Below the pieces are notes generated by a model. That model was not told where the DNA came from. It saw only the letters and a list, made by a program, of their open reading frames with translations, and did not search any database. Shown here in pieces: positions 20,765 through 64,000 of a stretch of 64,000 nucleotides of DNA. Origin of the DNA: Alphaproteobacteria bacterium (GTDB lineage Bacteria; Pseudomonadota; Alphaproteobacteria; SP197); NCBI GenBank assembly GCA_964291265.2, contig OZ219747.1, positions 256,001-320,000 on the forward strand, in the 5' to 3' direction. Each line of letters opens with the position of its first letter. Positions within the stretch are counted from its first letter, which is position 1. Made by a program: the position numbers and the translations under genes.

Positions 20765-22720
20765 ACCGAAGTTCCGGACGTTTTCCAGCTGGAAATCGCG
20801 TCAAGTCGTTGATCTTGCGCGGTTTATCGGGTTTGACGGACTTCACAACGTACCCATGTACGGATGCATTTTGTGCTTGACACACGGCAGTGCCGTGCCT
20901 ATGTACAGTAGCCATGTACATCGAAGCCGTCCCCAACCGCTCCTCGCCGCCCGCCATCCTGCTCCGCGAGTCCTATCGCGAAAACGGAAAGGTCAAGAAG
21001 CGCACCATCGCCAACCTCTCCAAGTGGTCCCCCACTCTCGTCGAGGGATTGCGCATCCTCCTCAAGGGAGGAACAGCAGTCCGACATCTCGACGATGCCT
21101 TCGACATCGTCCGCTCCCTCCCCCATGGGCATGTCGCCGCGGTGCTGGGAACCCTGAAGAAGCTGGGACTGGACAGGTTGATCGACCCGAAGCCCTCGGC
21201 ACGGCGCGATCAGGTCCTAGCCATGATCGTGGCACGCATCCTCGAGCCCGCCTCGAAGCTGGCCACGGCCAGGGGGCTGGCCGAGGCCACGGCGGTCAGC
21301 ACCCTGGGCGAGGTCCTCGATGCGGAGATGGACGAGGACGCCCTCTACGGCGCCATGGACTGGCTCCTGGAGCGTCAGGAGAGGATCGAGCGGTCCCTGG
21401 CGAAGCGGCGCCTCGAAGAGGGCTGCCTGGTGCTCTATGACCTGACCTCGGTATGGATGGAGGGGAGAGCGTGTCCCCTGGCCAGGAGGGGTCATTCCCG
21501 GGATGGCAAGAAGGGCAAGCTGCAGATCGAGTTCGGCCTTCTGTGCGATCGGGACGGCTGTCCAGTGTCGGTGGAAGTGTTCCCCGGCAACACGGCGGAC
21601 CCCGGGACGGTGGCATCACAGATCACCACGCTGCAGGAGCGCTTCTCCCTGGCGAAGGTGGTGCTGGTGGGAGACCGGGGGATGCTGACCGAGGCGCGCA
21701 TACGCGAGGAGGTGAAGCCTGCGGGCCTGGACTGGATCAGCGCCTTGAGGGGACCGGCCATCCGCGCCCTTGTGGAGGCCGGCGACGTCGAGATGTCGCT
21801 CTTCGACGAGAGGGACCTGGTGGAGATCACCAGCGATGCGTATCCCGGCGAACGCCTCATGGTCTGCCGCAACCCCCTGCTGGCCGAGGACCGGGCCCGC
21901 AAGCGCCAGGAACTGCTCGAGGCCACCGAGGCCCTGCTTGAACCGATCGCCGCAGCGACACGGCGCGACAAGCGCCGTCTCAAGGGTGCCGACAAGATCG
22001 GGGAGCGGGTCGGCAAGGTCATCAGCACGTACAAGATGGCGAAGCACTTCACGTGGTCCATCGACGACGAGGGTGTCTTCACCTATGGGCGCGATGAGGT
22101 TGCCATCGCCGCCGAGGCCAGGCTCGACGGCCTCTACGTGATCCGCACCAGCCTGCCGCAGAGCGAGCTCGACGGTCCCGGCACAGTGCGCGCCTACAAG
22201 CGGTTGAGTTCGGTGGAACGGGCCTTCCGCAGCCTGAAGACCGTGGATCTGAAGGTCCGTCCCGTCTACCACCGCACCGAACCCCGGGTCCGCGCCCATG
22301 TCTTCCTGTGCATGCTCGCCTACTACGTGGAATGGCACATGCGCCAGAAACTGAAGCCCATGCTGTTCGACGACGAGGATGCCGAAGGCGCCGAGGCCCG
22401 GCGGCCGTCCGTCGTGGCGCCGGCAGAAGTCTCGGCGAGCGCCCGGGCCAAGGCGGCAACCAAGAGGACGCCCGGGGGTGATCCGGTGCACAGCTTCCGT
22501 ACTCTCCTCGATGATCTCGCGACCATCACCCGCAACACCGTGGCGCCCCGCCTTGCGGGCGCCCAACCCTTCCAGGTCACCACGCGGCCCACGCCGCTCC
22601 AGAGAAGAGCACTCAAGCTCCTGGGCGTGAAGCCGTAATGTACCCAGTCAGACGCCCCTGAGATCCATCGAATGCCATTTATATCAAGCACTTGCACTTG
22701 ATCGGCGCTGGAACTTCGGT
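20765..22720 (+). mobile_element. IS1634-family insertion sequence
   Basis: Terminal inverted repeats ACCGAAGTTCC / GGAACTTCGGT, each flanked by CTAG (20761-20764 and 22721-22724). Confidence 0.92.
20914..22638 (+). CDS. IS1634-family DDE transposase
   Basis: LLRESYRENGKVKKRTIANLS, LYDLTS, VGDRGM, VERAFRSLK, VRAHVFLCMLAY. Confidence 0.92.
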   Translation: MYIEAVPNRSSPPAILLRESYRENGKVKKRTIANLSKWSPTLVEGLRILLKGGTAVRHLDDAFDIVRSLPHGHVAAVLGTLKKLGLDRLIDPKPSARRDQVLAMIVARILEPASKLATARGLAEATAVSTLGEVLDAEMDEDALYGAMDWLLERQERIERSLAKRRLEEGCLVLYDLTSVWMEGRACPLARRGHSRDGKKGKLQIEFGLLCDRDGCPVSVEVFPGNTADPGTVASQITTLQERFSLAKVVLVGDRGMLTEARIREEVKPAGLDWISALRGPAIRALVEAGDVEMSLFDERDLVEITSDAYPGERLMVCRNPLLAEDRARKRQELLEATEALLEPIAAATRRDKRRLKGADKIGERVGKVISTYKMAKHFTWSIDDEGVFTYGRDEVAIAAEARLDGLYVIRTSLPQSELDGPGTVRAYKRLSSVERAFRSLKTVDLKVRPVYHRTEPRVRAHVFLCMLAYYVEWHMRQKLKPMLFDDEDAEGAEARRPSVVAPAEVSASARAKAATKRTPGGDPVHSFRTLLDDLATITRNTVAPRLAGAQPFQVTTRPTPLQRRALKLLGVKP

Positions 22721-23082
22721 CTAGGGCGGGGGCGACGCCATGGCGGACGTAATCGTCGACGCGGGACTTGAGCCGATCGCCGAATCGGCGGATCGCGGAG
22801 CGGCTGACGCCCGGCGCGAAGGCGTCGAAGCCGTCGGCCAAGGCCCGATAGTCGAGGGTGATGTCGACGTCCTCGGAGAACCTGTCGACGATCCGATAGA
22901 CCTTCGAGAGCGAGGTGCCGCCCTTGAAGGCCATCGGATGGACATCCGGGGTGGAGAAGAGGATCTGGAGGACCCGGCAGATCCAGACGTCCTTCTCCAG
23001 GACGACCGCCGGCCGGCCCAGGCGGGCGGCGGCGGTCTGGAGGATATCGCGCCGGTCGGTGGCCGGCAGCGACAGGAAGGCG

Positions 23083-39599: not shown

Positions 39600-39922
39600 A
39601 TGGTGGCGACGGTGCACGAGCTTGCGTCATCGGCGACCGCGGTCTCTTACCACGAGCAGGACGGGTACTACGCCCGCAACGATCCCGAGCACCGCAAGGC
39701 GAGCTTCTGGCATGGCCGTGCGGCGGGCGACCTTGGGCTGAGGGGCCACGTTGTGCCGTCGCGCTTCGAGTCGGTGCTGCAGGGCAAGGTGCCGAAGACG
39801 GACATCCGTCTGGGGAAGGTCGTCGAGGGAGAGCGCCGGCACCGTCCGGGCCAAGACATCACGTTCTCGGCGCCGAAGTCGGTATCGCTGGAAGCGCTGG
39901 TGATGGGGGGCGGCATGGTGGT
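39600..39922 (+). pseudogene. MobF (TrwC-type) relaxase, 5' fragment
   Basis: SYHEQDGYY, FWHGRAAGDLGL, DITFSAPKSVSL; interrupted at GTGGT. Confidence 0.9.
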
Positions 39923-39990
39923 TGTTGATGGCTGCATAGAACGGCGGGATTTCGGCGATTTGCCGCGCTTTGTCAGGGTCGTGTTTCTTC

Positions 39991-40083
39991 CCTGTTGTCA
40001 GGTCCTATTGTCACGTCCTGTTGTCGTGGGTTCAGTGTTCGGCTGATTGTCTCCCCGAGCGCCGCCCGTTTTCCTATTGTCGT
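39991..40083 (+). repeat. 13-bp-period direct repeats CCTRTTGTC in the element's left end
   Basis: CCTGTTGTCAGGT / CCTATTGTCACGT / CCTGTTGTCGTGG in tandem, plus CCTATTGTCGT at 40073. Confidence 0.7.
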
Positions 40084-40312
40084 TTTGGTCCGGTTCGGAT
40101 TGTTCCGTCGGCCTCTGCTTCGGTCTTGGTGACGGTTGCCGGGAGGGTTTCGGTTCCGAGGCACTCGCGGGATCGTCTGTTTTCCCTGTGGTCTGGGTCG
40201 TGTTGTCCGGTCCCGGGGCGGCGTTTTTGCCGCCGCCCCGGGTGGATGCTAGATCGGCATCGAAAGAAAGAGCGATGCGATGCCGGGCAGAGTTGTGATG
40301 ACGCCCCCCGGC

Positions 40313-40382
40313 GCAGCACCCGGACGAGCCGGTCACGGGGGACCGAACTCCCGTGTATTGTCGAGCCATTTTGCGTCCGGGT
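40313..40382 (+). ncRNA. Candidate structured leader motif, copy B
   Basis: ACCCGGACG/CGTCCGGGT outer stem enclosing the hairpin CACGGGGG-ACCGAA-CTCCCGTG. Confidence 0.45.
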
Positions 40383-40406
40383 CCACCCCCGCTCTCGAGA
40401 CGGATC

Positions 40407-40883
40407 GTGTGCACGACGGGACGACTGTTCAACTGCAAGCGGTGTCAGCGGCAGGTTGTTCTCTGCCGGTCGTGTGACCGGGGGCATGTGTATTGCTCCG
40501 ATGAGTGCAGGGAGCGGTCCCGGATCGAGCGGCGCCGCGCGTCGCGTCGTCGCTACCAGAGCACGCTGAGGGGCCGTGAGACGGGCCGTCACCGCCAGCG
40601 GCGTTACCGGCTCCGCAAGGCGGAGGAGGCGCGTGCGTTGAAGGCCAGGGCGGCGATGCTTGCCGAGATCATGGGCACGCAGACGTCTGCTGTGGTGCTG
40701 CTTGGCGACGTTCCGGCGGTGTCTGGAGACGCCGGTTCCGAAGAAATCGTTACGGACCACCCTTCCCGACTGCTGCCGACCTCCCTACCTGCGGTTGTGA
40801 AGGCGCGAGAGCGACGCGAATCGCCGCTTCGGTGCGCCCGGTGCGGACGGGTCGTGACGCATGTGGTGCTGAGGGACCTGTGA
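40407..40883 (+). CDS. Cys-rich (Zn-finger) basic protein upstream of istA, outer copy
   Basis: CKRC, CRSC, CSDEC, Arg-rich helix, C-terminal CARC; start could also be 40353. Confidence 0.7.
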   Translation: MCTTGRLFNCKRCQRQVVLCRSCDRGHVYCSDECRERSRIERRRASRRRYQSTLRGRETGRHRQRRYRLRKAEEARALKARAAMLAEIMGTQTSAVVLLGDVPAVSGDAGSEEIVTDHPSRLLPTSLPAVVKARERRESPLRCARCGRVVTHVVLRDL

Positions 40884-41764
40884 TGCGGCGTTGAGGAACC
40901 AAAGGGAGGGAGTTCATGGCGATCGACGAGGACACGCGGGCGACGATCGTGCGGCTGTCGCGGGCCGAGGGCTGGGCTGTGGGGACGATTGCCCGGCATC
41001 TCGGCGTGCACCACGGCACGGTGACGCGGGCGCTCAAGGCGTCGGGGCAGGAGCGGCGGCCGCGGGCCAAGCTCATCGACCCCTTCGTTGCCTTCCTCGG
41101 GGAGCGTCTTGAGGCGTCGCCGGACCTTCCGGCCAGCACGCTCTGGCGACAGGTCGTGGCCCTGGGCTACCGCGGCGGCGAGGATCACTTCCGTCACGAC
41201 CTGCGCCGCCTCGGGCTGAGGCCGGTGAAGAGGCCCGAGCCGTCGCTGCGGCTGAGCTTCCTTCCGGGCGAGCAGGCGCAGGTTGACTGGGCCGAGTTCG
41301 GGAAGGTCCGCATTGGCCGGGCGGAGCGCAGGCTCATGGGGCTTCTCGTCACCCTCAGCTACTCGCGCCAGACTGTCCTGAGCCTGTTCCACGACGCGCG
41401 GATGGCCAGCTTCCTGCAAGGCCATGTCGAGGCTTTCGCGGCATTCGGGGGTGTGCCGCGGAGGCTTCTGTACGACAACCTGAAGAGTGCCGTGGTGACG
41501 CGCCGCGGCAAGGCGGTCACCTATCATCCGATGCTGCTCGGCCTCGCGGCCCACTATGCCTTCGAACCGAGCGCCGCCTGGCCCAGGAGCCCGCAGGAGA
41601 AGGGCCGCGTGGAACGCCGTGTGCGCTTCGCGCGCACCGGGTTCTTCGCCGGGCGCGACATCACGGTCCCGCTCGGCGAGCTCAACGCCGCGGTTCGGGA
41701 GTGGTGCTTCGGCGCCGCCGCGGAGCGGCCCTGGCCGGACGACGACAGTCTCCTGGTGCGGGAC

Positions 41765-44111
41765 CTTTCAAAGGGTCGGACTTGTATAGGTGATTCGTTT
41801 CGTGCATGCTGCGGGCATGCAGGTTGGTCTCCGCCATTTCGATTCGCAGACGCTTGACTGGTTTGCCGGCGCGTTGCGCTCCGCCGACGCCACCCGTCAC
41901 GGTCTGGCACGCGAGCTTTGCGAGCGCACCGGTTGGCGCAACGCGCTCGGCCGTCCGTGCCTGTCGGCGGCGGCGAAGGTGCTGCCGGCGCTCGCCGAGC
42001 GCGTGGGGTTGGAGCTTCCGCCGCCGCGGAGCGTGCCTGATCCGACCGTCGTGCCCGCCGTCCCGGCCGGTGACGTCCCCGACACCAAGCTGGTCTGCCT
42101 GCTGGAGGATCTCGGCCCGGTCTCGCTCGAACCGGTGGGCGAGGCCGACGATCGCCGGCTGTGGGAGGCGATGATGGCGACGCACCACCCGCTGGGATGG
42201 ACGCGCTCGCCCGGCGGCCAGGTGCGCTACTGGATCCGCTCGCAACGCCACGGCACCCTCGGCGGGATCGGCTTCGGGTCCGCGACCTGGCAGTTGCGGG
42301 CGCGGGATGAGTGGATCGCATGGTCCGCCGACGCCCGTGCCGCCAACATCGAGCGTGTGATCTGCGGTCATCGGTTTCTCCTGCTTCCCGGCGTTCGGGT
42401 CTACGGACTGGCCTCCCGGGTCCTGCGCATGGCGGCGGAGCGCATCGCCGACGATTGGGAGGCTCGCTATGCGGTGCGCCCGGTGGCGGCCTACACTCAT
42501 GTCGGTGCGGAGCACAGCGGCTATTGCTACCACTGCGCCGGCTGGACCGTGGCCGGGCGGACCAGCGGGCGCCGGGGCAAGGCCGGCACGGTGCGGGTCC
42601 TGGCCCTGGAGAGCGGCTGGCGGACGGTGCTCCACGGGACACAGCGCCGTCCACTCGGCGCCCTGGCGGGCGTCTATGACGGCACTGACGCGGACTGGGC
42701 GGAGCGGGAGTACGGGCGCACGCGCCATACCGACGGTCGGGTGCGGCGACGCATCGTTGACATGGGCCGGGCCTGGATGAAGAACATGGGGGAGGACCTG
42801 CCGATCATCTTTCCCGAGAAGGCGGAGCAGAAGGCCGCTTATCGGTTGCTGTCGAACCCGAGGGTCTCCATGGAGCACGTTCTGGAAGCGCATGTTGAGG
42901 CGACCGTGGAGCGTTGTCGGACAGAGCCTCTTGTCCTTGCGATACAGGACACGACGGCGATCAACTACAGCGGCCTGGAGGCCACGAAGGGTCTGGACAA
43001 GCTCGGCGGCGGCGGCAAGGGGAGCGTCGGCATCCTCGCCCACGCCGGTCTGGCGGTGACGTCGGAGGGCCGGCCGCTGGGCCTGTTCACGATGGATGCG
43101 GCCTTTCGGCAGGAGCCCGGGGAGGACAGTCAGCGCTGGGTCACCGGGCTTGAGCGGGCCCGGGAGCTCGCGGCGGCCTGCCCGGACACGCGTGTCGTCT
43201 CGGTCTGCGACCGCGAGGGCGACTTCTGGGAACTGCTCGCCCATGCCGCGGACGCCGGAGCCGCGCTGCTGGTGCGTGCGAGCCGTTCGGCGAAACAGCG
43301 CGTGGGTGAGCCCGACGGCAAAAAGACGTGCCTGTGGAAGCATGTCGCGGCCCGGCCGCTGGTCGCGGTGACGGAGCTGACGATCCCGGCCGCTGGCGGC
43401 CCGCGCGCCCGCAAGGAGCGCGTCGCCCGTCTCGAGATCCGCACGGCACAGGTCGAGGTGGCGCCGCCGCAAAAAGAGCGCGACGCGGAGCCTGTGTCCA
43501 TGTTCGCGGTCTCGGCCAGCGAGGCCGGAACCGGTGACGGCGACGAGGCCCTGCACTGGCTGCTGCTGACCACCGAGCGCCCGGCACCAGGGGAGGCCGA
43601 GGCCGTGCACGCGGCGACCGTCCTGGGCTGGTACCGGACGCGATGGAGCATCGAGACCTGGTTCCGCACGCTGAAGACCGGGACCCGGATCAAGGACCGC
43701 CGGCTCGACAGGGCCGACGACCTGAAGACGTGCCTTGCCTTCGACGCCGTCACCGCCGTCCATGTTGCCGACCTGACCGTGCTTGCGCGCGAGCGTCCCT
43801 TGACCCCGGCGAGCGAGGTGTTTGCCGAGGAGGACATCGACCTGCTCCGCACGCTGCTGGAATCCCAGGGTCACCGGGAGGTCCGGGCGATGGGCGATGT
43901 CCGTGCCGTCGTCATCGGCCTTGGGCGCCTTGTCGGGTGGCATCCCACGCCGCGCCAGACGCTCCCGGGAGCGAAGAAGCTCTGGCAGGGTCTCGAAAGG
44001 CTGAACTGGGCGATCCAGGTGCGTGACGCACTTGGCGCAAGAAGGCGGCGCGAAGCACTCGGTGAGAGAAGGCGGGAGTAACATCCCTATACACGCGTGG
44101 GTGGTTGAAAG
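41765..44111 (+). mobile_element. IS4-family element (2347 bp)
   Basis: Imperfect IRs CTTTCAA-N11-TGTATAGG at both ends; 9-bp TSD GTGCGGGAC at 41756-41764 and 44112-44120. Confidence 0.9.
41817..44081 (+). CDS. DUF4338 (DruA-like) domain fused to an IS4/Tn5-type DDE transposase
   Basis: N-half HHPLG, RDEWIAW, RFLLLPGV..GLASRVL, GYCYHCAGW; C-half KAAYRLLSN, IQDTT, CDREGD, YRTRWSIETWFRTLKTG (YREK), PGAKKLWQG. Confidence 0.85.
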   Translation: MQVGLRHFDSQTLDWFAGALRSADATRHGLARELCERTGWRNALGRPCLSAAAKVLPALAERVGLELPPPRSVPDPTVVPAVPAGDVPDTKLVCLLEDLGPVSLEPVGEADDRRLWEAMMATHHPLGWTRSPGGQVRYWIRSQRHGTLGGIGFGSATWQLRARDEWIAWSADARAANIERVICGHRFLLLPGVRVYGLASRVLRMAAERIADDWEARYAVRPVAAYTHVGAEHSGYCYHCAGWTVAGRTSGRRGKAGTVRVLALESGWRTVLHGTQRRPLGALAGVYDGTDADWAEREYGRTRHTDGRVRRRIVDMGRAWMKNMGEDLPIIFPEKAEQKAAYRLLSNPRVSMEHVLEAHVEATVERCRTEPLVLAIQDTTAINYSGLEATKGLDKLGGGGKGSVGILAHAGLAVTSEGRPLGLFTMDAAFRQEPGEDSQRWVTGLERARELAAACPDTRVVSVCDREGDFWELLAHAADAGAALLVRASRSAKQRVGEPDGKKTCLWKHVAARPLVAVTELTIPAAGGPRARKERVARLEIRTAQVEVAPPQKERDAEPVSMFAVSASEAGTGDGDEALHWLLLTTERPAPGEAEAVHAATVLGWYRTRWSIETWFRTLKTGTRIKDRRLDRADDLKTCLAFDAVTAVHVADLTVLARERPLTPASEVFAEEDIDLLRTLLESQGHREVRAMGDVRAVVIGLGRLVGWHPTPRQTLPGAKKLWQGLERLNWAIQVRDALGARRRREALGERRRE

Positions 44112-44761
44112 GTGCGGGACGCCTTCGCCCGGGAGAGGGAGCACCTGATCGTCCTTCCCGTCGACCCCTTCCCGCATCACGAGGTCCGCCCGGTGCGCAT
44201 CGACAAGACCTGCCACGCCCGCTTCGACACCAACGACTACAGCGTTCCGGGTAGCTTCTCCAAGGCCCTGCTGACGCTGGTCGCCGACCGCGACGAGGTT
44301 CGCATCCTCGACGGCGCCGACGAGGTCGCGCGCCACCGACGCTCCTACGACAGGAAGCAGGCCGTCACCGATCCGGAGCATGCCAGGGCGATCGCCGCGG
44401 GCAAGCGGCGGGCCCGCTCCATGAGCGTCCGCGACCGGGTCCTGCGCACCGTGCCGCGGGCCGAGGAGATGCTGGCGCGCGCCGGGACCAACGGGCGCAA
44501 CGTGGCCTCCTGCGCCCGGATGCTGGAGACGCTTCTCAACGCGCACGGCGCCGACGCTCTCGACCGGGCTGTCGCCACGGCGCTGGAGCGCGGCTCGTGC
44601 CACCCCGAAACCGTGCGCGTCATCATCGAGGAGCGCCGCCGGGAGCAGGGCCTGCCGCCCCTCAGCATCGCCGACGACGGCCGCGGCGGCCGTGGCACGA
44701 CGCCGCGGGGGACCGCTCTCGACGCCTACGACAGGCCCGAAGCCAGCGCCAGGAACAAGAC

Positions 44762-45463
44762 ATGAGCGAGCTCAGGGAGCGTGCCCGGGCGCTCGGCCTC
44801 CACGGGCTCGTCGAACGCTGGGACGAGGTCGCCGGGACCGCATGGATCGAGGAGGTGGTCAGCGGCGAGGAACAGGCCCGCAGGGCCCGCAGCCACGAGC
44901 GCCGCCGCGCCGCGGCGCGGCTGCCCGCCTTCAAGCCCCTGGCGGACTTCGACTGGACATGGCCGCGCGACATCAGCCGGGCTCATGTCGAAGCGCTCCT
45001 CGGCCTCGGCTTCGTCGACCGTGCGGACAACGCCGTGCTCGTCGGCGGGCAGGGCACCGGAAAGACCATGATCGCCGCCAACGTGGCGCACCAGGCCCTG
45101 CTGCACGGCCACACCGTCCGCTTCGAGAAGGCGCCGGAACTGCTCGAGGCACTCGCCGAGACCGTCTCGCGCAGCGAGCTGCGCCGCCGCCTCGCGATCC
45201 TCGCCAGGCCCCGCCTGCTCGTCCTCGACGAAATCGGCTACGTGACCCTCGAAAGCCACCATGCCGACATCCTCTACGCCATCGTCTCGCGGCGCTATCA
45301 GCGCCGCTCGACCATGGTCACGACAAGCCTCGCCTTCGCCCAGTGGGACCGCGTCTTCCCCAGCGCCTCCGGCATCGCCGGCACCGTCGACCGGCTCATG
45401 CACGACGCAACCCTCATCTCCATCGACAGCGACTCCTGGCGGCTCAGGCGTGAAACCCGATAA
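44762..45463 (+). CDS. istB: IS21 helper ATPase IstB (outer copy)
   Basis: FDWTWP, GGQGTGKT, LVLDEIGY, VDRLMH, SWR. Confidence 0.92.
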   Translation: MSELRERARALGLHGLVERWDEVAGTAWIEEVVSGEEQARRARSHERRRAAARLPAFKPLADFDWTWPRDISRAHVEALLGLGFVDRADNAVLVGGQGTGKTMIAANVAHQALLHGHTVRFEKAPELLEALAETVSRSELRRRLAILARPRLLVLDEIGYVTLESHHADILYAIVSRRYQRRSTMVTTSLAFAQWDRVFPSASGIAGTVDRLMHDATLISIDSDSWRLRRETR

Positions 45464-45997
45464 ACCCCGCCGCGTCGACTTCGACGCCGTCAAGCGCATG
45501 CCGTTCGAACGCATCGCCGCCGACTGGGGATACGTCCGCGACGAACAGGCCTCGACACGCGCCAACCCCGTCCTGTGCGCACCCGGCCTGCCGAAGCTCG
45601 TCACGAAGTGCCTCAACTGTCGGCGGCGATTTAGAACGGCGGGATATTGGCGGAGAACCGCTCTTTTGGGCGCTGATCGTGTGAGTGGGTGACCACGACA
45701 GGAGAACGTGCGGCATTGGACGAAGGTCCGCCCGGTCTTTGTTTTCTGCCTATTGTTGGATCCCATTGGTCTTGCATTGACGTTGACGATGTCGTTCCGG
45801 TCGGCGTTTTCTGGCGTTCGGCGTTTGTGGAACGTGATGTGGGAGGGGAGCTTCAGGCTTTTGCGCGTGGTTTCGTTCTGGCGTTCTCCGTCCTCGTCGT
45901 GGTTCGTCGGGCGGGACGATCTCGAGGCTGGAGAGCTGACGGTTTCTGTTGCGCTGGGCGAAGAGGCTGCGTGCGTTGCGGTTGCGGCGGCGCAGGG

Positions 45998-46713
45998 TGC
46001 GGCAGGCGTCGAGTGTTTTCGGGCGGATGCTGCGACCTGTGAGCCAGTCCGGCGGCGGATCGGGCGTTGCTGCGGCTCAGCGGCTGCGGCAGTCTCGTGA
46101 TGTGGTGTCGTTTGGACGGCCCGGGGGTTTCCCGGGGAGGCTGAGAGGCGCGTCGGGGTGAGACGTTCTCATTCCTGGATGGTAACGCGTGACCGCGTTC
46201 AAGGGTCTTGCGAGATTACGTGTCCCTTCCGTAGCCGCGTGGCGGTTCGATGTCCTCGAGAGCCTCGATGTCGGCATCGGCGACGATCTGCAGGCGTTCT
46301 CCGTAAGGCGTGTCACGGAGGGTTTCGGGGATGCTGTCGAGGCGGTCACGCCATTCGTCCTGCAGGGTGCGGCAGGCGTTGAGTGTTTTCGGGCGGATGC
46401 TGCGACCTGTAAGCCAGTCCGGCCAGCGGCTGCGGCAGTCTCGTGATGCGGTGTCGTTTGGACGGCCCGGGGGTTTCCCGGGGAGGCTGAGAAGCGCGTC
46501 GGGGTGAGACGTTCTCATTCCTGGATGGTAACGCGTGACCGCGTTCAAGGGTCTTGCGGGATCACGTATCCCTTCCGTAGCCGCGTGGCGGTTCGATGTC
46601 CTCGAGGGCCTCGATGTCGGCATCGGCGACGCTCTGCAGGCGTTCTCCGTAAGGCGTGTCACGGAGGCTTTCGGGGATGCTGTCGAGGTGGTCACGCCAT
46701 TCGTCCTGCAGGG
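45998..46713 (-). repeat. Internal tandem duplication (346/370 bp), inner copy
   Basis: Mirror image of 51834-52549. Confidence 0.85.
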
Positions 46714-46852
46714 CGCGCAGTTCGGCCACGGCGTCGTTCCAGCGTTGCGGTCGCGAGCGCCGGTCACGGTGCTTTGGGGTGTGGACGGGAGGGATGCCGG
46801 CCTTGCGCCGTTCCCGGTATCGCCGCTGCTTTTCGGCGGGCGTGAGGGGCAT
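46562..46852 (-). CDS. Small hypothetical protein, inner copy
   Basis: LTPAEKQRRYRERRK...RSRPQRWNDAV...EPPRGYGRD; AGGAG RBS; alternative ATGA-coupled start at 46882. Confidence 0.72.
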   Translation of the reverse strand: MPLTPAEKQRRYRERRKAGIPPVHTPKHRDRRSRPQRWNDAVAELRALQDEWRDHLDSIPESLRDTPYGERLQSVADADIEALEDIEPPRGYGRDT

Positions 46853-46878
46853 GAGTGGTCTCCTTGTGACGGACGTGG

Positions 46879-47772
46879 TCATGATCTCGCTTGTGGTTCT
46901 TTGGTCCTGGCGTTGACGACGTCGTTCCAGTCGGCGTTTTCCGGCGGTCTGCGTCTGTGGAACGAGACGTGGGAGGGGAGCTTCATCTTTTTGCGCAGGG
47001 TTTCGGCCTGTCGCTCTCCGGCCTCGTCGTGGTCCTGGGCGAGGACGATGGTCCTGACGTTGGGCAGGCTGCTTGCGGCGAGGCTGATCTGTTCGTGCTG
47101 TCTTCGCGAGGGTGCCCCGGCGGTGGAGAGGAAGGCGTGGCTGGGGGGACATTGGTCGATCTGGGCCAGGCTGAGGGCGTCGACGGCGCTTTCGGTGATG
47201 ACGAGGGCCTCGAGGTCCGCGGCGGTTCCGGCGCGGACGGCGAACAGGCTTCGGGTTCCACCGGTGGCGAAGCGTTTCGGTCCGTCGGGGGGACCGATCT
47301 CGAAGCCGGTGAGCTTTCGCTTCCTGTTGCGATGGGCGAAGAGGACGCGTCCGTTGTGGTCGCGGCGGACCAGGGGGCGGCAGGTGTCGAGGGTCTCCGG
47401 GAGGATGCCGCGCCCGGTGAGCCAGTCCGGGGCCGCATCGGGCGTTGCCGCGGCCCAGAGGCTGCGGAAGTCGCGTGGCGCGGCGTCGGGTGCTGCGAAG
47501 CGGGTGCAGATGTCGGCGAAGGCCAGTCCGCGGTTGAGCATGAAGTCGATGACGGTTCCGTTGTCTTCATCGTTCTGGGTGTTGAAGTAGACCCAGTGTC
47601 CGTTGTTGAGGCACTTCGTGACGAGCTTCGGCAGGCCGGGTGCGCACAGGACGGGGTTGGCGCGTGTCGAGGCCTGTTCGTCGCGGACGTATCCCCAGTC
47701 GGCGGCGATGCGTTCGAACGGCATGCGCTTGACGGCGTCGAAGTCGACGCGGCGGGGTTTATCGGGTTTCAC
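46879..47772 (-). CDS. Toprim-domain primase-like protein (DUF3991/Toprim_2-like), intact
   Basis: GHWVYF...GTVIDF, WLTGRGI, ITESAVDALS (conserved Glu), LAQDHDEAG (DxD); GTG start overlaps the end of istB. Confidence 0.8.
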   Translation of the reverse strand: MKPDKPRRVDFDAVKRMPFERIAADWGYVRDEQASTRANPVLCAPGLPKLVTKCLNNGHWVYFNTQNDEDNGTVIDFMLNRGLAFADICTRFAAPDAAPRDFRSLWAAATPDAAPDWLTGRGILPETLDTCRPLVRRDHNGRVLFAHRNRKRKLTGFEIGPPDGPKRFATGGTRSLFAVRAGTAADLEALVITESAVDALSLAQIDQCPPSHAFLSTAGAPSRRQHEQISLAASSLPNVRTIVLAQDHDEAGERQAETLRKKMKLPSHVSFHRRRPPENADWNDVVNARTKEPQARS

Positions 47773-48460
47773 GCCTGAGCCGCCAGGAGTCGCTGTCGAT
47801 GGAGATGAGGGTTGCGTCGTGCATGAGCCGGTCGACGGTGCCGGCGATGCCGGAGGCGCTGGGGAAGACGCGGTCCCACTGGGCGAAGGCGAGGCTTGTC
47901 GTGACCATGGTCGAGCGGCGCTGATAGCGCCGCGAGACGATGGCGTAGAGGATGTCGGCATGGTGGCTTTCGAGGGTCACGTAGCCGATTTCGTCGAGGA
48001 TGAGCAGGCGGGGCCTGGCGAGGATCGCGAGGCGGCGGCGCAGCTCGCTGCGCGAGGCGGTCTCGGCGAGTGCCTCGAGCAGTTCCGGCGCCTTCTCGAA
48101 GCGGACGGTGTGGCCGTGCAGCAGGGCCTGGTGCGCCACGTTGGCGGCGATCATGGTCTTTCCGGTGCCCTGCCCGCCGACGAGCACGGCGTTGTCCGCA
48201 CGGTCGACGAAGCCGAGGCCGAGGAGCGCTTCGACATGAGCCCGGCTGATGTCGCGCGGCCATGTCCAGTCGAAGTCCGCCAGGGGCTTGAAGGCGGGCA
48301 GTCGCGCCGCGGCGCGGCGGCGCTCGTGGCTGCGGGCCCTGCGGGCCTGTTCCTCGCCGCTGACCACCTCCTCGATCCATGCGGTCCCGGCGACCTCGTC
48401 CCAGCGTTCGACGAGCCCGTGGAGGCCGAGCGCCCGGGCACGCTCCCTGAGCTCGCTCAT
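47759..48460 (-). CDS. istB: IS21 helper ATPase IstB (inner copy)
   Basis: Walker A GGQGTGKT, Walker B LILDE. Confidence 0.92.
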   Translation of the reverse strand: MSELRERARALGLHGLVERWDEVAGTAWIEEVVSGEEQARRARSHERRRAAARLPAFKPLADFDWTWPRDISRAHVEALLGLGFVDRADNAVLVGGQGTGKTMIAANVAHQALLHGHTVRFEKAPELLEALAETASRSELRRRLAILARPRLLILDEIGYVTLESHHADILYAIVSRRYQRRSTMVTTSLAFAQWDRVFPSASGIAGTVDRLMHDATLISIDSDSWRLRRETR

Positions 48461-49950
48461 GTCTTGTTCCTGGCGCTGGCTTCGGGCCTGTCGTAGGCGT
48501 CGAGAGCGGTCCCCCGCGGCGTCGTGCCACGGCCGCCGCGGCCGTCGTCGGCGATGCTGAGGGGCGGCAGGCCCTGCTCCCGGCGGCGCTCCTCGATGAT
48601 GACGCGCACGGTTTCGGGGTGGCACGAGCCGCGCTCCAGCGCCGTGGCGACAGCCCGGTCGAGAGCGTCGGCGCCGTGCGCGTTGAGAAGCGTCTCCAGC
48701 ATCCGGGCGCAGGAGGCCACGTTGCGCCCGTTGGTCCCGGCGCGCGCCAGCATCTCCTCGGCCCGCGGCACGGTGCGCAGGACCCGGTCGCGGACGCTCA
48801 TGGAGCGGGCCCGCCGCTTGCCCGCGGCGATCGCCCTGGCATGCTCCGGATCGGTGACGACCTGCTTCCTGTTGTAGGAGCGTCGGTGGCGCGCGACCTC
48901 GTCGGCGCCGTCGAGGATGCGAACCTCGTCGCGGTCGGCGACCAGCGTCAGCAGGGCCTTGGAGAAGCTACCCGGAACGCTGTAGTCGTTGGTGTCGAAG
49001 CGGGCGTGGCAGGTCTTGTCGATGCGCACCGGGCGGACCTCGTGATGCGGGAAGGGGTCGACGGGAAGGACGATCAGGTGCTCCCTCTCCCGGGCGAAGG
49101 CGTCCCGCACCAGGAGACTGTCGTCGTCCGGCCAGGGCCGCTCCGCGGCGGCGCCGAAGCACCACTCCCGAACTGCGGCGTTGAGCTCGCCGAGCGGGAC
49201 CGTGATGTCGCGCCCGGCGAAGAACCCGGTGCGCGCGAAGCGCACACGGCGTTCCACGCGGCCCTTCTCCTGCGGGCTCCTGGGCCAGGCGGCGCTCGGT
49301 TCGAAGGCATAGTGGGCCGCGAGGCCGAGCAGCATCGGATGATAGGTGACCGCCTTGCCGCGGCGCGTCACCACGGCACTCTTCAGGTTGTCGTACAGAA
49401 GCCTCCGCGGCACACCCCCGAATGCCGCGAAAGCCTCGACATGGCCTTGCAGGAAGCTGGCCATCCGCGCGTCGTGGAACAGGCTCAGGACAGTCTGGCG
49501 CGAGTAGCTGAGGGTGACGAGAAGCCCCATGAGCCTGCGCTCCGCCCGGCCAATGCGGACCTTCCCGAACTCGGCCCAGTCAACCTGCGCCTGCTCGCCC
49601 GGAAGGAAGCTCAGCCGCAGCGACGGCTCGGGCCTCTTCACCGGCCTCAGCCCGAGGCGGCGCAGGTCGTGACGGAAGTGATCCTCGCCGCCGCGGTAGC
49701 CCAGAGCCACGACCTGTCGCCAGAGCGTGCTGGCCGGAAGGTCCGGCGACGCCTCAAGACGCTCCCCGAGGAAGGCAACGAAGGGGTCGATGAGCTTGGC
49801 CCGCGGCCGCCGCTCCTGCCCCGACGCCTTGAGCGCCCGCGTCACCGTGCCGTGGTGCACGCCGAGATGCCGGGCAATCGTCCCCACAGCCCAGCCCTCG
49901 GCCCGCGACAGCCGCACGATCGTCGCCCGCGTGTCCTCGTCGATCGCCAT
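48457..49950 (-). CDS. istA: IS21 transposase IstA (inner copy, intact)
   Basis: N-terminal HTH, PGEQAQVDW, LSYSR, YDNLKSAV, EKGRVER, FDTNDYSVP. Confidence 0.94.
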   Translation of the reverse strand: MAIDEDTRATIVRLSRAEGWAVGTIARHLGVHHGTVTRALKASGQERRPRAKLIDPFVAFLGERLEASPDLPASTLWRQVVALGYRGGEDHFRHDLRRLGLRPVKRPEPSLRLSFLPGEQAQVDWAEFGKVRIGRAERRLMGLLVTLSYSRQTVLSLFHDARMASFLQGHVEAFAAFGGVPRRLLYDNLKSAVVTRRGKAVTYHPMLLGLAAHYAFEPSAAWPRSPQEKGRVERRVRFARTGFFAGRDITVPLGELNAAVREWCFGAAAERPWPDDDSLLVRDAFAREREHLIVLPVDPFPHHEVRPVRIDKTCHARFDTNDYSVPGSFSKALLTLVADRDEVRILDGADEVARHRRSYNRKQVVTDPEHARAIAAGKRRARSMSVRDRVLRTVPRAEEMLARAGTNGRNVASCARMLETLLNAHGADALDRAVATALERGSCHPETVRVIIEERRREQGLPPLSIADDGRGGRGTTPRGTALDAYDRPEASARNKT

Positions 49951-49982
49951 GAACTCCCTCCCTTTGGTTCCTCAACGCCGCA

Positions 49983-50459
49983 TCACAGGTCCCTCAGCAC
50001 CACATGCGTCACGACCCGTCCGCACCGGGCGCACCGAAGCGGCGATTCGCGTCGCTCTTGCGCCTTCACAACCGCAGGTAGGGAGGTCGGCAGCAGTCGG
50101 GAAGGGTGGTCCGTAACGATTTCTTCAGAACCGGCGTCTCCAGACACCGCCGGAACGTCGCCAAGCAGCACCACAGCAGACGTCTGCGTGCCCATGATCT
50201 CGGCAACCATCGCCGCCCTGGCCTTCAACGCACGCGCCTCCTCCGCCTTGCGGAGCCGGTAACGCCGCTGGCGGTGACGGCCCGTCTCACGGCCCTTCAG
50301 CGTGCTCTGGTAGCGACGACGCGACGCGCGGCGCCGCTCGATCCGGGACCGCTCCCTGCACTCCTTGGAGCAATACACATGCCCCCGGTCACACGACCGG
50401 CAGAGAACAACCTGCCGCTGACACCGCCTGCAGTTGAACAGTCGTCCTGTCGTGCACAC
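49983..50459 (-). CDS. Cys-rich (Zn-finger) basic protein, inner copy
   Basis: Near-identical to 40407-40883. Confidence 0.7.
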   Translation of the reverse strand: MCTTGRLFNCRRCQRQVVLCRSCDRGHVYCSKECRERSRIERRRASRRRYQSTLKGRETGRHRQRRYRLRKAEEARALKARAAMVAEIMGTQTSAVVLLGDVPAVSGDAGSEEIVTDHPSRLLPTSLPAVVKAQERRESPLRCARCGRVVTHVVLRDL

Positions 50460-50483
50460 CGTCCGTCTCGAGAGCGGGGGTGG

Positions 50484-50553
50484 ACCCGGACGCAAAATGG
50501 CTCGACAATACACGGGAGTTCGGTCCCCCGTGACCGGCTCGTCCGGGTGCTGC
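50484..50553 (-). ncRNA. Candidate structured leader motif, copy C
   Basis: Identical to copy B even though the leader upstream of it differs between the two element copies. Confidence 0.45.
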
Positions 50554-51694
50554 GCCGGGGGGCGTCACAACTCCGCCCGGCATCGCATCGCTCTTTCTCT
50601 TGATGCCGATCTAGCATCCACCCGGGGCGGCGGCAAAGACGCCGCCCCGGGACCGGACAACGCGACCCGCCCACAGGGAAGACAAACAATCCCGCGAGTG
50701 CCTCGGAACCGGAACCCTCCCGGCAACCGTCACCAAGACCGAAGCAGAGGTCGACGGAACCCGAACCGGACCAAAACGACAATAGGAAAAGACGGCGGCG
50801 CTCGGGGAGACAACCAGCCGAACACTCAAACCACGACAACAGGACGTGACAATAGGACCTGACAACAGGGAAGAAACACGACCCTGACAAAGCGCGGCAA
50901 ATCGCCGAAATCCCGCCGTTCTATGCAGCCATCAACATCAACAACGGACACTGGGTCTACTTCAACACCCAGAACGATGAAGACAACGGAACCGTCATCG
51001 ACTTCATGCTCAACCGCGGACTGGCCTTCGCCGACATCTGCACCCGCTTCACAGCACCCGACGCCGCGCCACGCGACTTCCGCAGCCTCTGGGCCGCGGC
51101 AACGCCCGATGCGGCCCCGGACTGGCTCACCGGGCGCGGCATCCTCCCGGAGACCCTCGACACCTGCCGCCCCCTGGTCCGCCGCGACCACAACGGACGC
51201 GTCCTCTTCGCCCATCGCAACAGGAAGCGAAAGCTCACCGGCTTCGAGATCGGTCCCCCCGACGGACCGAAACGCTTCGCCACCGGTGGAACCCGAAGCC
51301 TGTTCGCCGTCCGCGCCGGAACCGCCGCGGACCTCGAGGCCCTCGTCATCACCGAAAGCGCCGTCGACGCCCTCAGCCTGGCCCAGATCGACCAATGTCC
51401 CCCCAGCCACGCCTTCCTCTCCACCGCCGGGGCACCCTCGCGAAGACAGCACGAACAGATCAGCCTCGCCGCAAGCAGCCTGCCCAACGTCAGGACCATC
51501 GTCCTCGCCCAGGACCACGACGAGGCCGGAGAGCGACAGGCCGAAACCCTGCGCAAAAAGATGAAGCTCCCCTCCCACGTCTCGTTCCACAGACGCAGAC
51601 CGCCGGAAAACGCCGACTGGAACGACGTCGTCAACGCCAGGACCAAAGAACCACAAGCGAGATCATGACCACGTCCGTCACAAGGAGACCACTC

Positions 51695-51985
51695 ATGCCC
51701 CTCACGCCCGCCGAAAAGCAGCGGCGATACCGGGAACGGCGCAAGGCCGGCATCCCTCCCGTCCACACCCCAAAGCACCGTGACCGGCGCTCGCGACCGC
51801 AACGCTGGAACGACGCCGTGGCCGAACTGCGCGCCCTGCAGGACGAATGGCGTGACCGCCTCGACAGCATCCCCGAAAGCCTCCGTGACACGCCTTACGG
51901 AGAACGCCTGCAGAGCGTCGCCGATGCCGACATCGAGGCCCTCGAGGACATCGAACCGCCACGCGGCTACGGAAGGGATACGTGA
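51695..51985 (+). CDS. Small hypothetical protein, outer copy
   Basis: Same protein as 46852-46562; AAGGAG RBS. Confidence 0.72.
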   Translation: MPLTPAEKQRRYRERRKAGIPPVHTPKHRDRRSRPQRWNDAVAELRALQDEWRDRLDSIPESLRDTPYGERLQSVADADIEALEDIEPPRGYGRDT

Positions 51986-52549
51986 TCCCGCAAGACCCTT
52001 GAACGCGGTCACGCGTTACCATCCAGGAATGAGAACGTCTCACCCCGACGCGCTTCTCAGCCTCCCCGGGAAACCCCCGGGCCGTCCAAACGACACCGCA
52101 TCACGAGACTGCCGCAGCCGCTGGCCGGACTGGCTTACAGGTCGCAGCATCCGCCCGAAAACACTCAACGCCTGCCGCACCCTGCAGGACGAATGGCGTG
52201 ACCGCCTCGACAGCATCCCCGAAACCCTCCGTGACACGCCTTACGGAGAACGCCTGCAGAGCGTCGCCGATGCCGACATCGAGGCTCTCGAGGACATCGA
52301 ACCGCCACGCGGCTACGGAAGGGACACGTAATCTCGCAAGACCCTTGAACGCGGTCACGCGTTACCATCCAGGAATGAGAACGTCTCACCCCGACGCGCC
52401 TCTCAGCCTCCCCGGGAAACCCCCGGGCCGTCCAAACGACACCACATCACGAGACTGCCGCAGCCGCTGAGCCGCAGCAACGCCCGATCCGCCGCCGGAC
52501 TGGCTCACAGGTCGCAGCATCCGCCCGAAAACACTCGACGCCTGCCGCA
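51834..52549 (+). repeat. Internal tandem duplication, units 51834-52179 and 52180-52549
   Basis: Repeats the 3' half of the small ORF, a spacer with two hairpins and part of a decayed Toprim gene; unit 2 has 24 extra bp. Confidence 0.88.
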
Positions 52550-52765
52550 CCCTGCGCCGCCGCAACCGCAACGCACGCAGCCTCTTCGCCCAGCGCAACA
52601 GAAACCGTCAGCTCTCCAGCCTCGAGATCGTCCCGCCCGACGAACCACGACGAGGCCGGAAAACGCCAGAACGAAACCACGCGCAAAAGCCTGAAGCTCC
52701 CCTCCCACATCACGTTCCACAAACGCCGAACGCCAGAAAACGCCGACCGGAACGACATCGTCAAC
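52437..52765 (+). pseudogene. Decayed, internally deleted paralogue of the Toprim gene
   Basis: Aligns by eye to ~51059-51268 and ~51515-51635. Confidence 0.75.
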
Positions 52766-52929
52766 GTCAATGCAAGACCAATGGGATCCAACAATAGGCA
52801 GAAAACAAAGACCGGGCGGACCTTCGTCCAATGCCGCACGTTCTCCTGTCGTGGTCACCCACTCACACGATCAGCGCCCAAAAGAGCGGTTCTCCGCCAA
52901 TATCCCGCCGTTCTAAATCGCCGCCGACA

Positions 52930-53010
52930 GTGGTGGCGGGCTTTCGCCATCTCACCGGCCGTGACCTCGATCCCCAACTTCACACGCACTGCGTTCTGGC
53001 GAACATGCAA
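52930..53010 (+). pseudogene. MobF relaxase, continuation with HUH motif
   Basis: VVAGFRHLTGRDLDPQLHTHCVLANM, in frame with the 39600 fragment after removing the element. Confidence 0.9.
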
Positions 53011-62590: not shown

Positions 62591-63244
62591 ACCGAAGTTC
62601 CAGAACCGATCAGACGTATCGTTATGAATGTCAGACATCCTGACCTGCTCTTCTGAGGGGCATATCACACCGCTCAGGAAACCCACGGTTTTCCTGTGTT
62701 TCTGCCTGTTTCAGCGCGGATTCTGCTTGACATGTGGCGATAAATACGTCCAATATCGCATGTTCCAATTTTAGCTCCCCATGGCACCCTCCCTACCGCT
62801 CCAGCCCGCCCATGCCACACCATCGTCTACGACATCGACGGCGCAACACAACAAAATCGTCTCATTGACGTTGGACGAGGTCAGGATGTCTGAATGTATT
62901 GACGTTTGAAAAAATCGGGTGTGTCGCTACTGGGAACGCTACAGGCGTACGTCGAGGTGGTTCAGGGCCTTTTTTCCGGAGCGCCTTGGGCCACGTGGTG
63001 ACCTGGAAGGGCCGCAGGGTTTCGACCTTCTCCATGGGCCAGGGGGAGAGATTGTTGGCGGGGGCCTCATGCGGTTGGGGGCTATGTCCACGTACATGGC
63101 AACGAATATGGGGCGATGGACGCATGTGTCAACAGAGATTTCCACCGTTACATGGGAACATTTGCATGCTGTCCCTCTGCCGTTTTATCAGCAAGATCAA
63201 CGACTTGGTGTGGTTGTACCGCAGAAATCGTCCGGAACTTCGGC
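62591..63244 (-). mobile_element. Non-autonomous, internally deleted IS1634 relative (654 bp)
   Basis: Ends ACCGAAGTTCC / GGAACTTCGGC flanked by CTAG; contains the transposase start (MYVDIAPNR) joined to its end (PFQVTTWP...ALNHLDVRL). Confidence 0.82.
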
Positions 63245-63248
63245 CTAG

Positions 63249-64000
63249 ACCGAAGTTCCAGCGCCGATCAAGTGCAAATGCTTGATATAAATGGCATTCG
63301 ATGGATCTCAGGGGCGTCTGACTGGGTACATTACGGCTTCACGCCCAGGAGCTTGAGTGCTCTTCTCTGGAGCGGCGTGGGCCGCGTGGTGACCTGGAAG
63401 GGTTGGGCGCCCGCAAGGCGGGGCGCCACGGTGTTGCGGGTGATGGTCGCGAGATCATCGAGGAGAGTGCGGAAACTGTGCACCGGATCACCCCCGGGCG
63501 TCCTCTTGGTTGCCGCCTTGGCCCGGGCGCTCGCCGAGACTTCTGCCGGCGCCACGACGGACGGCCGCCGGGCCTCGGCGCCTTCGGCATCCTCGTCGTC
63601 GAACAGCATGGGCTTCAGTTTCTGGCGCATGTGCCATTCCACGTAGTAGGCGAGCATGCACAGGAAGACATGGGCGCGGACCCGGGGTTCGGTGCGGTGG
63701 TAGACGGGGCGGACCTTCAGATCCACGGTCTTCAGGCTGCGGAAGGCCCGTTCCACCGAACTCAGCCGCTTGTAGGCGCGCACTGTGCCGGGACCGTCGA
63801 GCTCGCTCTGCGGCAGGCTGGTGCGGATCACGTAGAGGCCGTCGAGCCTGGCCTCGGCGGCGATGGCAGCCTCATCGCGCCCATAGGTGAAGACACCCTC
63901 GTCGTCGATGGACCACGTGAAGTGCTTCGCCATCTTGTATTTACCGATGACCTTGCCGACCCGCTCCCCGATCTTGTCGGCACCCTTGAGACGGCGCTTG
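63249..64000 (-). mobile_element. Second IS1634 copy (partial, runs off the window)
   Basis: Near-identical to ~21970-22720 in reverse complement; begins after CTAG at 63245-63248. Confidence 0.93.
63331..64000 (-). CDS. IS1634 transposase, 3' part
   Basis: Same C-terminal protein as 20914-22638, with few substitutions. Confidence 0.92.
   Translation of the reverse strand, partial: KRRLKGADKIGERVGKVIGKYKMAKHFTWSIDDEGVFTYGRDEAAIAAEARLDGLYVIRTSLPQSELDGPGTVRAYKRLSSVERAFRSLKTVDLKVRPVYHRTEPRVRAHVFLCMLAYYVEWHMRQKLKPMLFDDEDAEGAEARRPSVVAPAEVSASARAKAATKRTPGGDPVHSFRTLLDDLATITRNTVAPRLAGAQPFQVTTRPTPLQRRALKLLGVKP

Follow-up and report, generated by a model that had tools for sequence, protein, structure and literature searches.

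The DNA analysed here (the window) is a 64,000-nucleotide stretch from an alphaproteobacterium (GTDB lineage Bacteria; Pseudomonadota; Alphaproteobacteria; SP197; NCBI GenBank assembly GCA_964291265.2, contig OZ219747.1, positions 256,001 to 320,000 of the forward strand), and all unprefixed coordinates are positions within it. It contains a 5,320-bp insertion sequence (IS) that belongs to the IS21 family by its transposase, its ATPase, its ends and its target-site duplication, and that departs from the two-gene description of this family by carrying, among other additions, a gene for a predicted primase of the DUF3991/Toprim type behind the ATPase gene (Table 1). The element is read on the minus strand, and its five open reading frames (ORFs) were confirmed. 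An earlier reading, made from the sequence alone, had taken them for one operon in which the last four overlap or are coupled. Overlaps were found only between istA and istB (4 nt) and between istB and the toprim gene (11 nt), while gaps of 32 nt and 26 nt separate the zinc-finger gene from istA and the toprim gene from the small ORF. The IstA triad is present in all ten clusters of the clade described below. Note that IstB scores 193.5 bits with NF038214, slightly below the cut-off of 200.

Table 1. Features of the IS21-family element and of the copy that surrounds it (window coordinates).
Feature	Position	Strand	Basis or remark
Whole IS21-family element, 5,320 bp	45618..50937	-	host genome has 29 full-length copies, 98-100% identical
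Left terminal inverted repeat (TGT…)	50888..50937	-	34/50 identical to right end; relatives with same layout
Right terminal inverted repeat	45618..45667	+	pairs with left end
Target-site duplication TCAAC, one side	45613..45617	+	
Target-site duplication TCAAC, other side	50938..50942	+	
Zinc-finger/basic-helix protein, ~158 aa	49983..50459	-	longest ORF from 50513
istA, DDE transposase, 497 aa, D124/D187/E233	48457..49950	-	NF033546 223 bits, cut-off 160
istB, AAA+ helper ATPase, 233 aa	47759..48460	-	PF01695 E 9.5e-51 (173 bits)
toprim, predicted DUF3991/Toprim primase, 297 aa, E194/D198/D247/D249/D281	46879..47769	-	fold and residues
Small basic/acidic ORF, 96 aa, passenger	46562..46852	-	2/10 clade elements
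Tail: decayed copies of parts of toprim and of the small ORF, identity to the genes 81-91%	45778..46561	-	
Four inward-facing sub-terminal CC(T)RTTGT repeats near left end, three of them spaced 13 bp apart	50778..50869	-	
One motif copy facing inward from right end	45749..45757	+	
12-bp GC-rich hairpin in leader	50621..50651	.	
Outer copy of same element, target-site duplication GTGGT	39923..52929	+	interrupted by IS4 and by the inner 5,320-bp element

The gene upstream of istA, and not the primase gene, marks the subgroup to which the element belongs: 52 of the 54 clusters inspected, from many phyla, have it ahead of istA. Its product was modelled with a mean predicted local distance difference test score (pLDDT) of 82 as a Cys finger followed by a long basic helix and then another CxxC. 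In Pfam and NCBIfam nothing matched it above cut-off, ESM Atlas gave hypothetical clusters only, and Foldseek returned nothing below an E value of 0.001 (best hit YacG, E 0.73). Among the 29 full-length genomic copies it is the most variable gene (28 non-synonymous and 14 synonymous variants), yet it is never broken. At the other end of the operon, the 96-aa ORF is a passenger and not the machine part that it had been taken for: it occurs in two of the ten clade elements with mapped ends, and a homologue (78%) lies behind an IS110 transposase elsewhere in the host genome (L182:1310-2580; C2:3033533, 2669492). The 944 bp past it consist mostly of decayed copies of pieces of the toprim gene and of the small ORF. 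Intact versions among the 29 copies number 29 for istA, 29 for istB, 28 for toprim and 26 for the small ORF.

The boundaries read from the sequence were confirmed, both for the ends (on the forward strand, TGT from 45618 and ACA to 50937) and for the duplicated TCAAC. Over the terminal 50 bp the two ends are identical at 34 positions; they begin and finish with the TG…CA of the IS21 family, and their layout is alike in nine relatives. For the L1/L2 and R1/R2 direct repeats of IS21, a look by eye found degenerate GC-rich boxes only. The second copy noticed earlier is the outer copy, which has its own duplication; the inner element is inserted within its Toprim gene, and its istA is split by an IS4 element (41765-44110). 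The target of the outer copy was a truncated trwC relaxase gene (39600-39920 and 52930-53010).

Across the 4.83-Mb host genome, 49 left-end and 42 right-end matches were found, together with the 29 full-length copies, which make up 3.2% of the genome. A 5-7 bp duplication flanks 26 of the 29. When each left end was paired with a right end no more than 30 kb away, the choice being made by the best duplication, 37 left ends found a partner and 32 of these pairs had a 5-7 bp duplication. The 32 duplications comprise 30 different 5-mers, so there is no target consensus, as in other IS21 elements, and in at least four cases one copy sits inside another. Because of these many copies, the duplications at their ends and the variety of the target 5-mers, we conclude that the whole unit is mobile, has moved recently and does so without a target consensus. 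Left ends also occur alone, in some ten cases and with lengths of 26-600 bp (C2:837508, 993796, 1866714, 3066894 and others), and two of these stop at 163-164 bp, just past the last repeat motif. At C2:4237410-4258495, two copies in direct order flank 5 kb of other IS DNA with an outer duplication CGTGC, a possible composite transposon; a cointegrate was rejected here, since the inner duplication does not match.

The Toprim protein was modelled with AlphaFold2 on a 38-sequence alignment (pLDDT 91), and the structure check that had been proposed gave a DnaG/T7 primase fold. The best Foldseek matches were the zinc-binding and RNA-polymerase domains of Aquifex aeolicus DnaG (E 1.7e-8) and T7 gp4 (E 1e-7); a VIA comparison with T7 primase gave Z 15.8 and a root-mean-square deviation of 3.2 over 178 residues. 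A profile match to T7 gp4 (E 1.8e-8) places E194, D198, D247 and D249 on E157, D161, D207 and D209, and the RNA-polymerase domain (an N-terminal subdomain plus the Toprim fold) is recognised in both structure and profile comparisons. The Glu and DxD described earlier as intact (E194, D247 and D249) are, like D281, R121 and R167, invariant in all 23 clade proteins. The zinc-binding domain of host DnaG gave a weak alignment with the N-terminal domain (E 3e-4). With the caveats gathered below, the protein is thus a predicted primase of the DnaG/T7 type. Its closest free relatives (31-40%) are encoded by stand-alone genes in soil and myxobacterial loci, and an istB lies beside none of these 91 genes. 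Thirteen such loci were scanned, covering 61 of 221 candidate ORFs; conjugation families were found in six, and most of the others have topoisomerase III, integrase, Rep3 or ParA. Among 451 plasmid matches, 298 are conjugative. The C-terminal extension of the conjugative relatives is absent from the clade proteins. No biochemical study of any DUF3991 protein was found in the literature searched, where the term occurs in two papers.

To place the gene in its family, 145 istA-istB units were grouped into 56 clusters at 95% identity. Ten of these (IstA 49-100%) form one clade (Shimodaira-Hasegawa support 100), with element sizes of 4.0-5.3 kb, and all ten carry the primase; close IstA homologues without a Toprim gene, which were to count against the gene as a core component, did not occur. 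Many clade units had been fetched with the primase as query, and this bias was checked by searching 33 host-family genomes with IstB as the anchor. All eight foreign copies at 63-72% were followed by the primase (one cut by another element), and a copy at 50% had no primase behind it. The eight belong to clusters already counted and add freedom from bias, not numbers. Conversely, each of the 77 clade Toprim matches with its 5' end present sits behind istB, some loci having been fetched twice. The proposed test of synteny and phylogenetic congruence also came out in favour of the linkage: pairwise non-synonymous divergence (dN) of IstA and primase correlates with a Spearman coefficient of 0.95 (45 non-independent pairs). 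Median ratios of dN to synonymous divergence (dS), calculated by the Nei-Gojobori method from the same kind of non-independent pairs in GC-rich DNA, were 0.42 for the primase, 0.36 for IstA and 0.35 for IstB. The ten-out-of-ten linkage, the dN correlation and a dN/dS near that of IstA indicate, at the level of sequence comparison, that within the clade the primase is fixed and under purifying selection similar to that on IstA.

Outside the clade the position behind istB is occupied differently, and the view of the Toprim gene as a core component holds for the clade and not for the wider subgroup: relatives with IstA at 41-50% identity mostly lack it, and one has the slot empty. No primase was found within the available flank of 37 clusters (16 of them with short flanks), and 11 primase-less elements with mapped ends measure 3.3-3.8 kb with ends and duplications intact. 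In 22 of the 37, a family of 60-95 aa proteins is encoded directly behind istB, often with a 4-nt overlap; it occurs in none of 18 primase-bearing clusters. These proteins were detected with a profile built from nine ORFs chosen by their tail, which resembles that of SSB, the protein that binds single-stranded DNA: 20 of the 22 have an acidic tail ending in F and 15 end in PF, an ending that none of the 74 other ORFs from these stretches has. The host SSB ends in DFDDGIPF. PMC7293020 describes the SSB tail as a protein-recruiting motif. Examples of the small proteins are L068:8285-8494 and L114:8362-8553, with 20 more, and they match no Pfam family. Other occupants of the slot are an ORF with a weak HTH_36 winged-helix match (E 0.015; L087:8241-8702, L107:8326-8739) and a family of 110-130 aa in L091, L104 and L124. 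The slot is interchangeable among replication-type genes, and the primase is an accessory there, not an indispensable part.

A related arrangement was found in a second multicopy transposon of the host genome, 5,160 bp long (C2:47062-52221; L180), with four full copies, 5-bp duplications and the ends TAAGCG/TGAGCG. Its genes encode a Cys-rich ORF, a DDE transposase, an AAA_22 ExeA-like ATPase, an AAA_25 RepA-type helicase and a DUF3991 primase of a second subfamily. Among the best 80 of 446 matches to this subfamily, the gene lies behind an ExeA-like ATPase in 47 loci and behind a RepA-type helicase in 25, together 72 of 76; the records come from Alphaproteobacteria, Bryobacterales, Verrucomicrobiae and Acidimicrobiales, and their catalytic residues are intact. 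In a third IS21 type, a gene of this subfamily lies convergent to istB (L001:2110-5389, L223:6574-10093). The catalytically dead Toprim of a sister IS21 group (see below) groups with the second subfamily, and the clade primase groups with the conjugative proteins. A single clade for the two IS21-borne Toprims was rejected by the approximately unbiased test (p-AU 0.0005; 23 of 104 clusters used), and on this basis the trees indicate that these transposons acquired primases on two or more occasions, whether through independent capture or through replacement. For the corresponding IstAs a single clade is compatible with the data (p-AU 0.64; 22 of 56 clusters used), though a quick tree split them into two clades; two IstA origins are not claimed, since p-AU is 0.64.

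The sequence-only reading had cited a skew switch, iteron-like repeats and a structured leader in support of replication, and these fared unequally. The skew is no switch: it is a near-linear gradient (slope -0.58, rho -0.95), each strand being G+T-rich at its own 5' end, and it is steeper than in 2000 of 2000 random windows (IS4 slope -0.11). It is present in all ten clade elements, in seven elements with a dead primase and in ExeA elements. The end-to-end difference has a median of 0.35 in the clade and 0.10 in the 11 primase-less elements (p 0.0008; the elements are related and host is a confounder). As a primase-specific sign it was rejected, since it is strong in four primase-less elements. 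It fits forks entering from the ends, which replicative transposition would produce.

The repeats are real, with four motif copies near the left end and one near the right, and do not support the autonomously replicating circle to which they had been taken to point. Facing inward, CC(C/T)(A/G)TTGT lies 54-152 bp from the left end in nine of ten clade elements (22 copies, compared with 0.45 in shuffles), and it is absent there from the opposite strand. It was found at no left end of seven dead-primase or 11 primase-less elements. The strand carrying the motif is the one whose displacement would come first, and we take the motif, as a lead only, to resemble the T7 5'-GTC-3' site. These clade-specific repeats are candidate binding sites for the primase or for another protein. 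As for the leader, its folding is modest (RNA z -1.26, DNA z -2.43) and it has neither an Rfam match nor a sigma-70 match; a structured RNA or promoter was rejected on these grounds.

Taken together, the data give what we consider a somewhat better than even chance that the primase provides the primer for copying the strand that is displaced in a forked intermediate of transposition. A copy-out/paste-in route has been proposed for IS21 (PMC11208146; bioRxiv 2023.06.07.543989), and in elements that use this route the figure-eight becomes a circle through replication (PMC7780238). From the IstA/IstB machinery, the mobility of the unit, the primase fold and its acidic residues, the fixation and selection in the clade and the interchange at the slot, we infer the following conditional scheme. 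IstA would nick one strand at an end, giving a forked intermediate (a copy-out/paste-in figure-eight or a Shapiro-type fork). The 3'-OH of the flank would then prime a leading strand into the element and displace the strand with its 5' terminus at this end. The element primase, possibly at the inward CCYRTTGT repeats, would prime the displaced strand, making it double-stranded and replacing or speeding the host PriA/DnaB/DnaG step. Finally, IstB would bring the ends to a random target, with formation of the 5-bp duplication.

Several observations weigh against this reading. Host dnaG and priA are both intact; a host lacking either was considered and rejected, and no host deficit explains the need for an element primase. 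A primase alone needs a helicase, and the element encodes none. In a sister group of eight clusters a different Toprim has lost the catalytic Glu and DxD (dN/dS 0.56), and a relative from the host's own genus (L385; 3,175 bp, with a target-site duplication) has the slot empty; because of these two cases, catalysis is dispensable. Within the clade itself, D198 is Asp in 14 of 23 proteins and Asn in nine, no Cys column that could supply zinc ligands is conserved in the N-terminal domain of the 23, and the site ahead of the Toprim domain where DnaG (FGGR) and T7 (K122) are basic is not basic here. A basic residue at FGGR/K122 matters for primase catalysis. The skew slope reaches -0.29 to -0.38 in the primase-less L083, L098, L113 and L385. 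The repeat motif, which could serve the binding of another protein, occurs at the right ends of only four of ten clade elements; it was defined after the ends had been viewed and the elements are kin, so its counts overstate the case. A predicted IstB-Toprim complex scored 0.00 and carries no weight either way.

Some of these points favour a mainly non-catalytic role, in which the Toprim protein would bind single-stranded DNA or forks as an adaptor, either handing the transpososome to the host replisome or selecting IstB targets as TniQ or TnsE does for TnsC. The position directly behind an AAA+ gene, the retention under selection of a dead version in the sister clade, the filling of the same slot by the SSB-tail-like protein and the missing zinc ligands and basic residue are all in keeping with it. 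It accounts poorly for acidic residues that do not vary among the 23 clade proteins and that the ExeA-linked subfamily keeps intact. A TnsE-type selector is further opposed by the varied target 5-mers noted above and by the absence of replichore bias among 35 insertions (17 co-oriented, 18 anti-oriented), with the reservation that old copies, rearrangement and selection may blur this count. We regard an adaptor as rather unlikely. A passenger captured once, of no benefit to the element or of benefit to the host only, would be consistent with the lack of a primase in most of the subgroup and with the element's habit of collecting passengers (the small ORF, the decayed duplicates). Such a gene would not be expected to show purifying selection near the IstA level over dS 0.3-0.8, to remain intact in all but one of the genomic copies or to have been captured repeatedly into the same slot by unrelated transposons, and this explanation seems to us improbable.

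Two further explanations were weighed. The excised circle suggested by the sequence-only reading would replicate autonomously for a time in the manner of a mini-plasmid or a DDE-type integrative and conjugative element (ICE), the element's primase acting where the ends are joined. A primase and repeats near the ends are what it calls for, an origin at the end junction would yield the same gradient, and the helicase and primase of relatives resemble an RSF1010-type pair. Against it, Pfam/NCBIfam-type scans of the element's ORFs found no helicase or initiator family, one or other of which an autonomous replicon would encode, and no partition gene; the gradient is shared with primase-less relatives, and the number of repeats of this 8-bp motif varies from 0 to 5 between elements. 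No end-to-end junction was found in the assembly or in contigs of three public runs (one study); contigs are prone to drop rare forms, so this absence carries no weight as evidence. We give this circle little credence. Alternatively, the primase could serve horizontal spread by priming the incoming single strand after conjugation, with no part in transposition. Its closest free relatives do lie beside type IV secretion system (T4SS), topoisomerase III and integrase genes, the outer copy lies within a relaxase fragment, and near-identical elements occur in different taxa. Yet the clade proteins have lost the extension of their conjugative relatives, and none of the elements examined has a relaxase, origin of transfer (oriT) or T4SS gene; the coupling of the gene to istB and its exchange for SSB-tail proteins point to a transposition operon. 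A conjugation helper is, in our judgement, very unlikely. Priming during transposition remains the best reading of the gene.

Compared with known systems, the element shares with IS21 and IS5376 the same IstA and IstB families, overlapping genes and TG…CA ends. IS5376 makes 5-bp duplications without target preference (PMC10122671), and PMC10293859 states that no target selector has been reported for IS21. The usual description of IS21, which is not a mechanistic criterion, is of istA and istB only in 2-2.8 kb; here, four conserved genes and a passenger occupy 5,320 bp, the clade having added a zinc-finger gene upstream and a primase gene downstream. The copy-out/paste-in elements IS911, IS256/ISCth4 and IS30, whose route is the one proposed for IS21, make their circle by replication and rely on the host for it, whereas this element encodes a primase. 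IS911 is said, in work attributed to Duval-Valentin in 2004, to need host DnaG. Phage Mu likewise combines a DDE transposase with an AAA+ ATPase and passes its fork to a primosome; it uses host PriA/DnaB/DnaG and shows target immunity, unlike the present element, which inserts into its own copies. The requirement of Mu for PriA is described in PMC5778457.

The fold and acidic residues are those of T7 gp4, DnaG and the conjugative DUF3991-Toprim proteins; the element primase differs in lacking zinc cysteines, a helicase and a helicase-binding domain, and in sitting in a transposon operon. DUF3991 genes are on record in Bacteroidales ICEs (PMC4073490) and in the tra region of a rhizobial plasmid (PMC13055273). 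The insertion sequence excision enhancer (IEE) is a primase-type protein that acts on copy-out intermediates (bioRxiv 2023.06.07.543989), but it has an archaeo-eukaryotic primase (AEP) PrimPol fold, is encoded outside the IS and promotes excision. The TnsBC-type transposons with a DDE transposase and an ExeA ATPase likewise encode, behind the ATPase gene, a DUF3991 primase that is often accompanied by a RepA-type helicase, and differ from this element in transposase, ATPase and primase subfamily. In the available text of two IS21 structure papers (PMC10122671, PMC11208146) the word "primase" is absent, and a literature search that excluded subscription journals, supplements, ISfinder and TnPedia turned up no account of a primase in an IS21 or TnsBC element, so a database entry may exist.

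Other features of the surroundings were recorded in passing. The IS4-family transposase within the outer copy (41790-44081) is 763 aa long with an N-terminal DruA-like domain (PF14236, E 7e-24), and its element, of 2,346 bp with a 9-bp target-site duplication, is present in several copies. A pair of 760-bp inverted repeats, 99% identical, lies at 21969-22728 and 63241-64000 and is probably another IS. Repeated DNA makes up 22% of the main host contig, and the replichores are unequal (skew minimum at ~0.79 Mb, maximum at ~3.32 Mb of 4.44 Mb).

On a broader scale we offer, with slightly less than even confidence, the generalisation that in DDE plus AAA+ transposons of the IS21, Mu and Tn7 type the position following the ATPase gene is a modular replication slot, where a primase, a pair of helicase and primase or a mimic of the SSB tail would prime or recruit the replication completing transposition. 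The present element would be the self-priming form, and the first IS with a working primase of its own at dedicated end sites. Of all steps in the pathway of copy-out and other replicative transposons, the one least understood is how replication takes over the branched intermediate, and for IS21 the pathway itself is a proposal. Primase, dead primase, SSB-tail protein and empty slot form a natural series in which this step can be tested, and purified components and structures exist for IS21. A primase that made transposition independent of host priming would also account for bursts of copies and for movement between distant hosts, and it would suggest host-independent parts for AAA+-controlled transposon tools.

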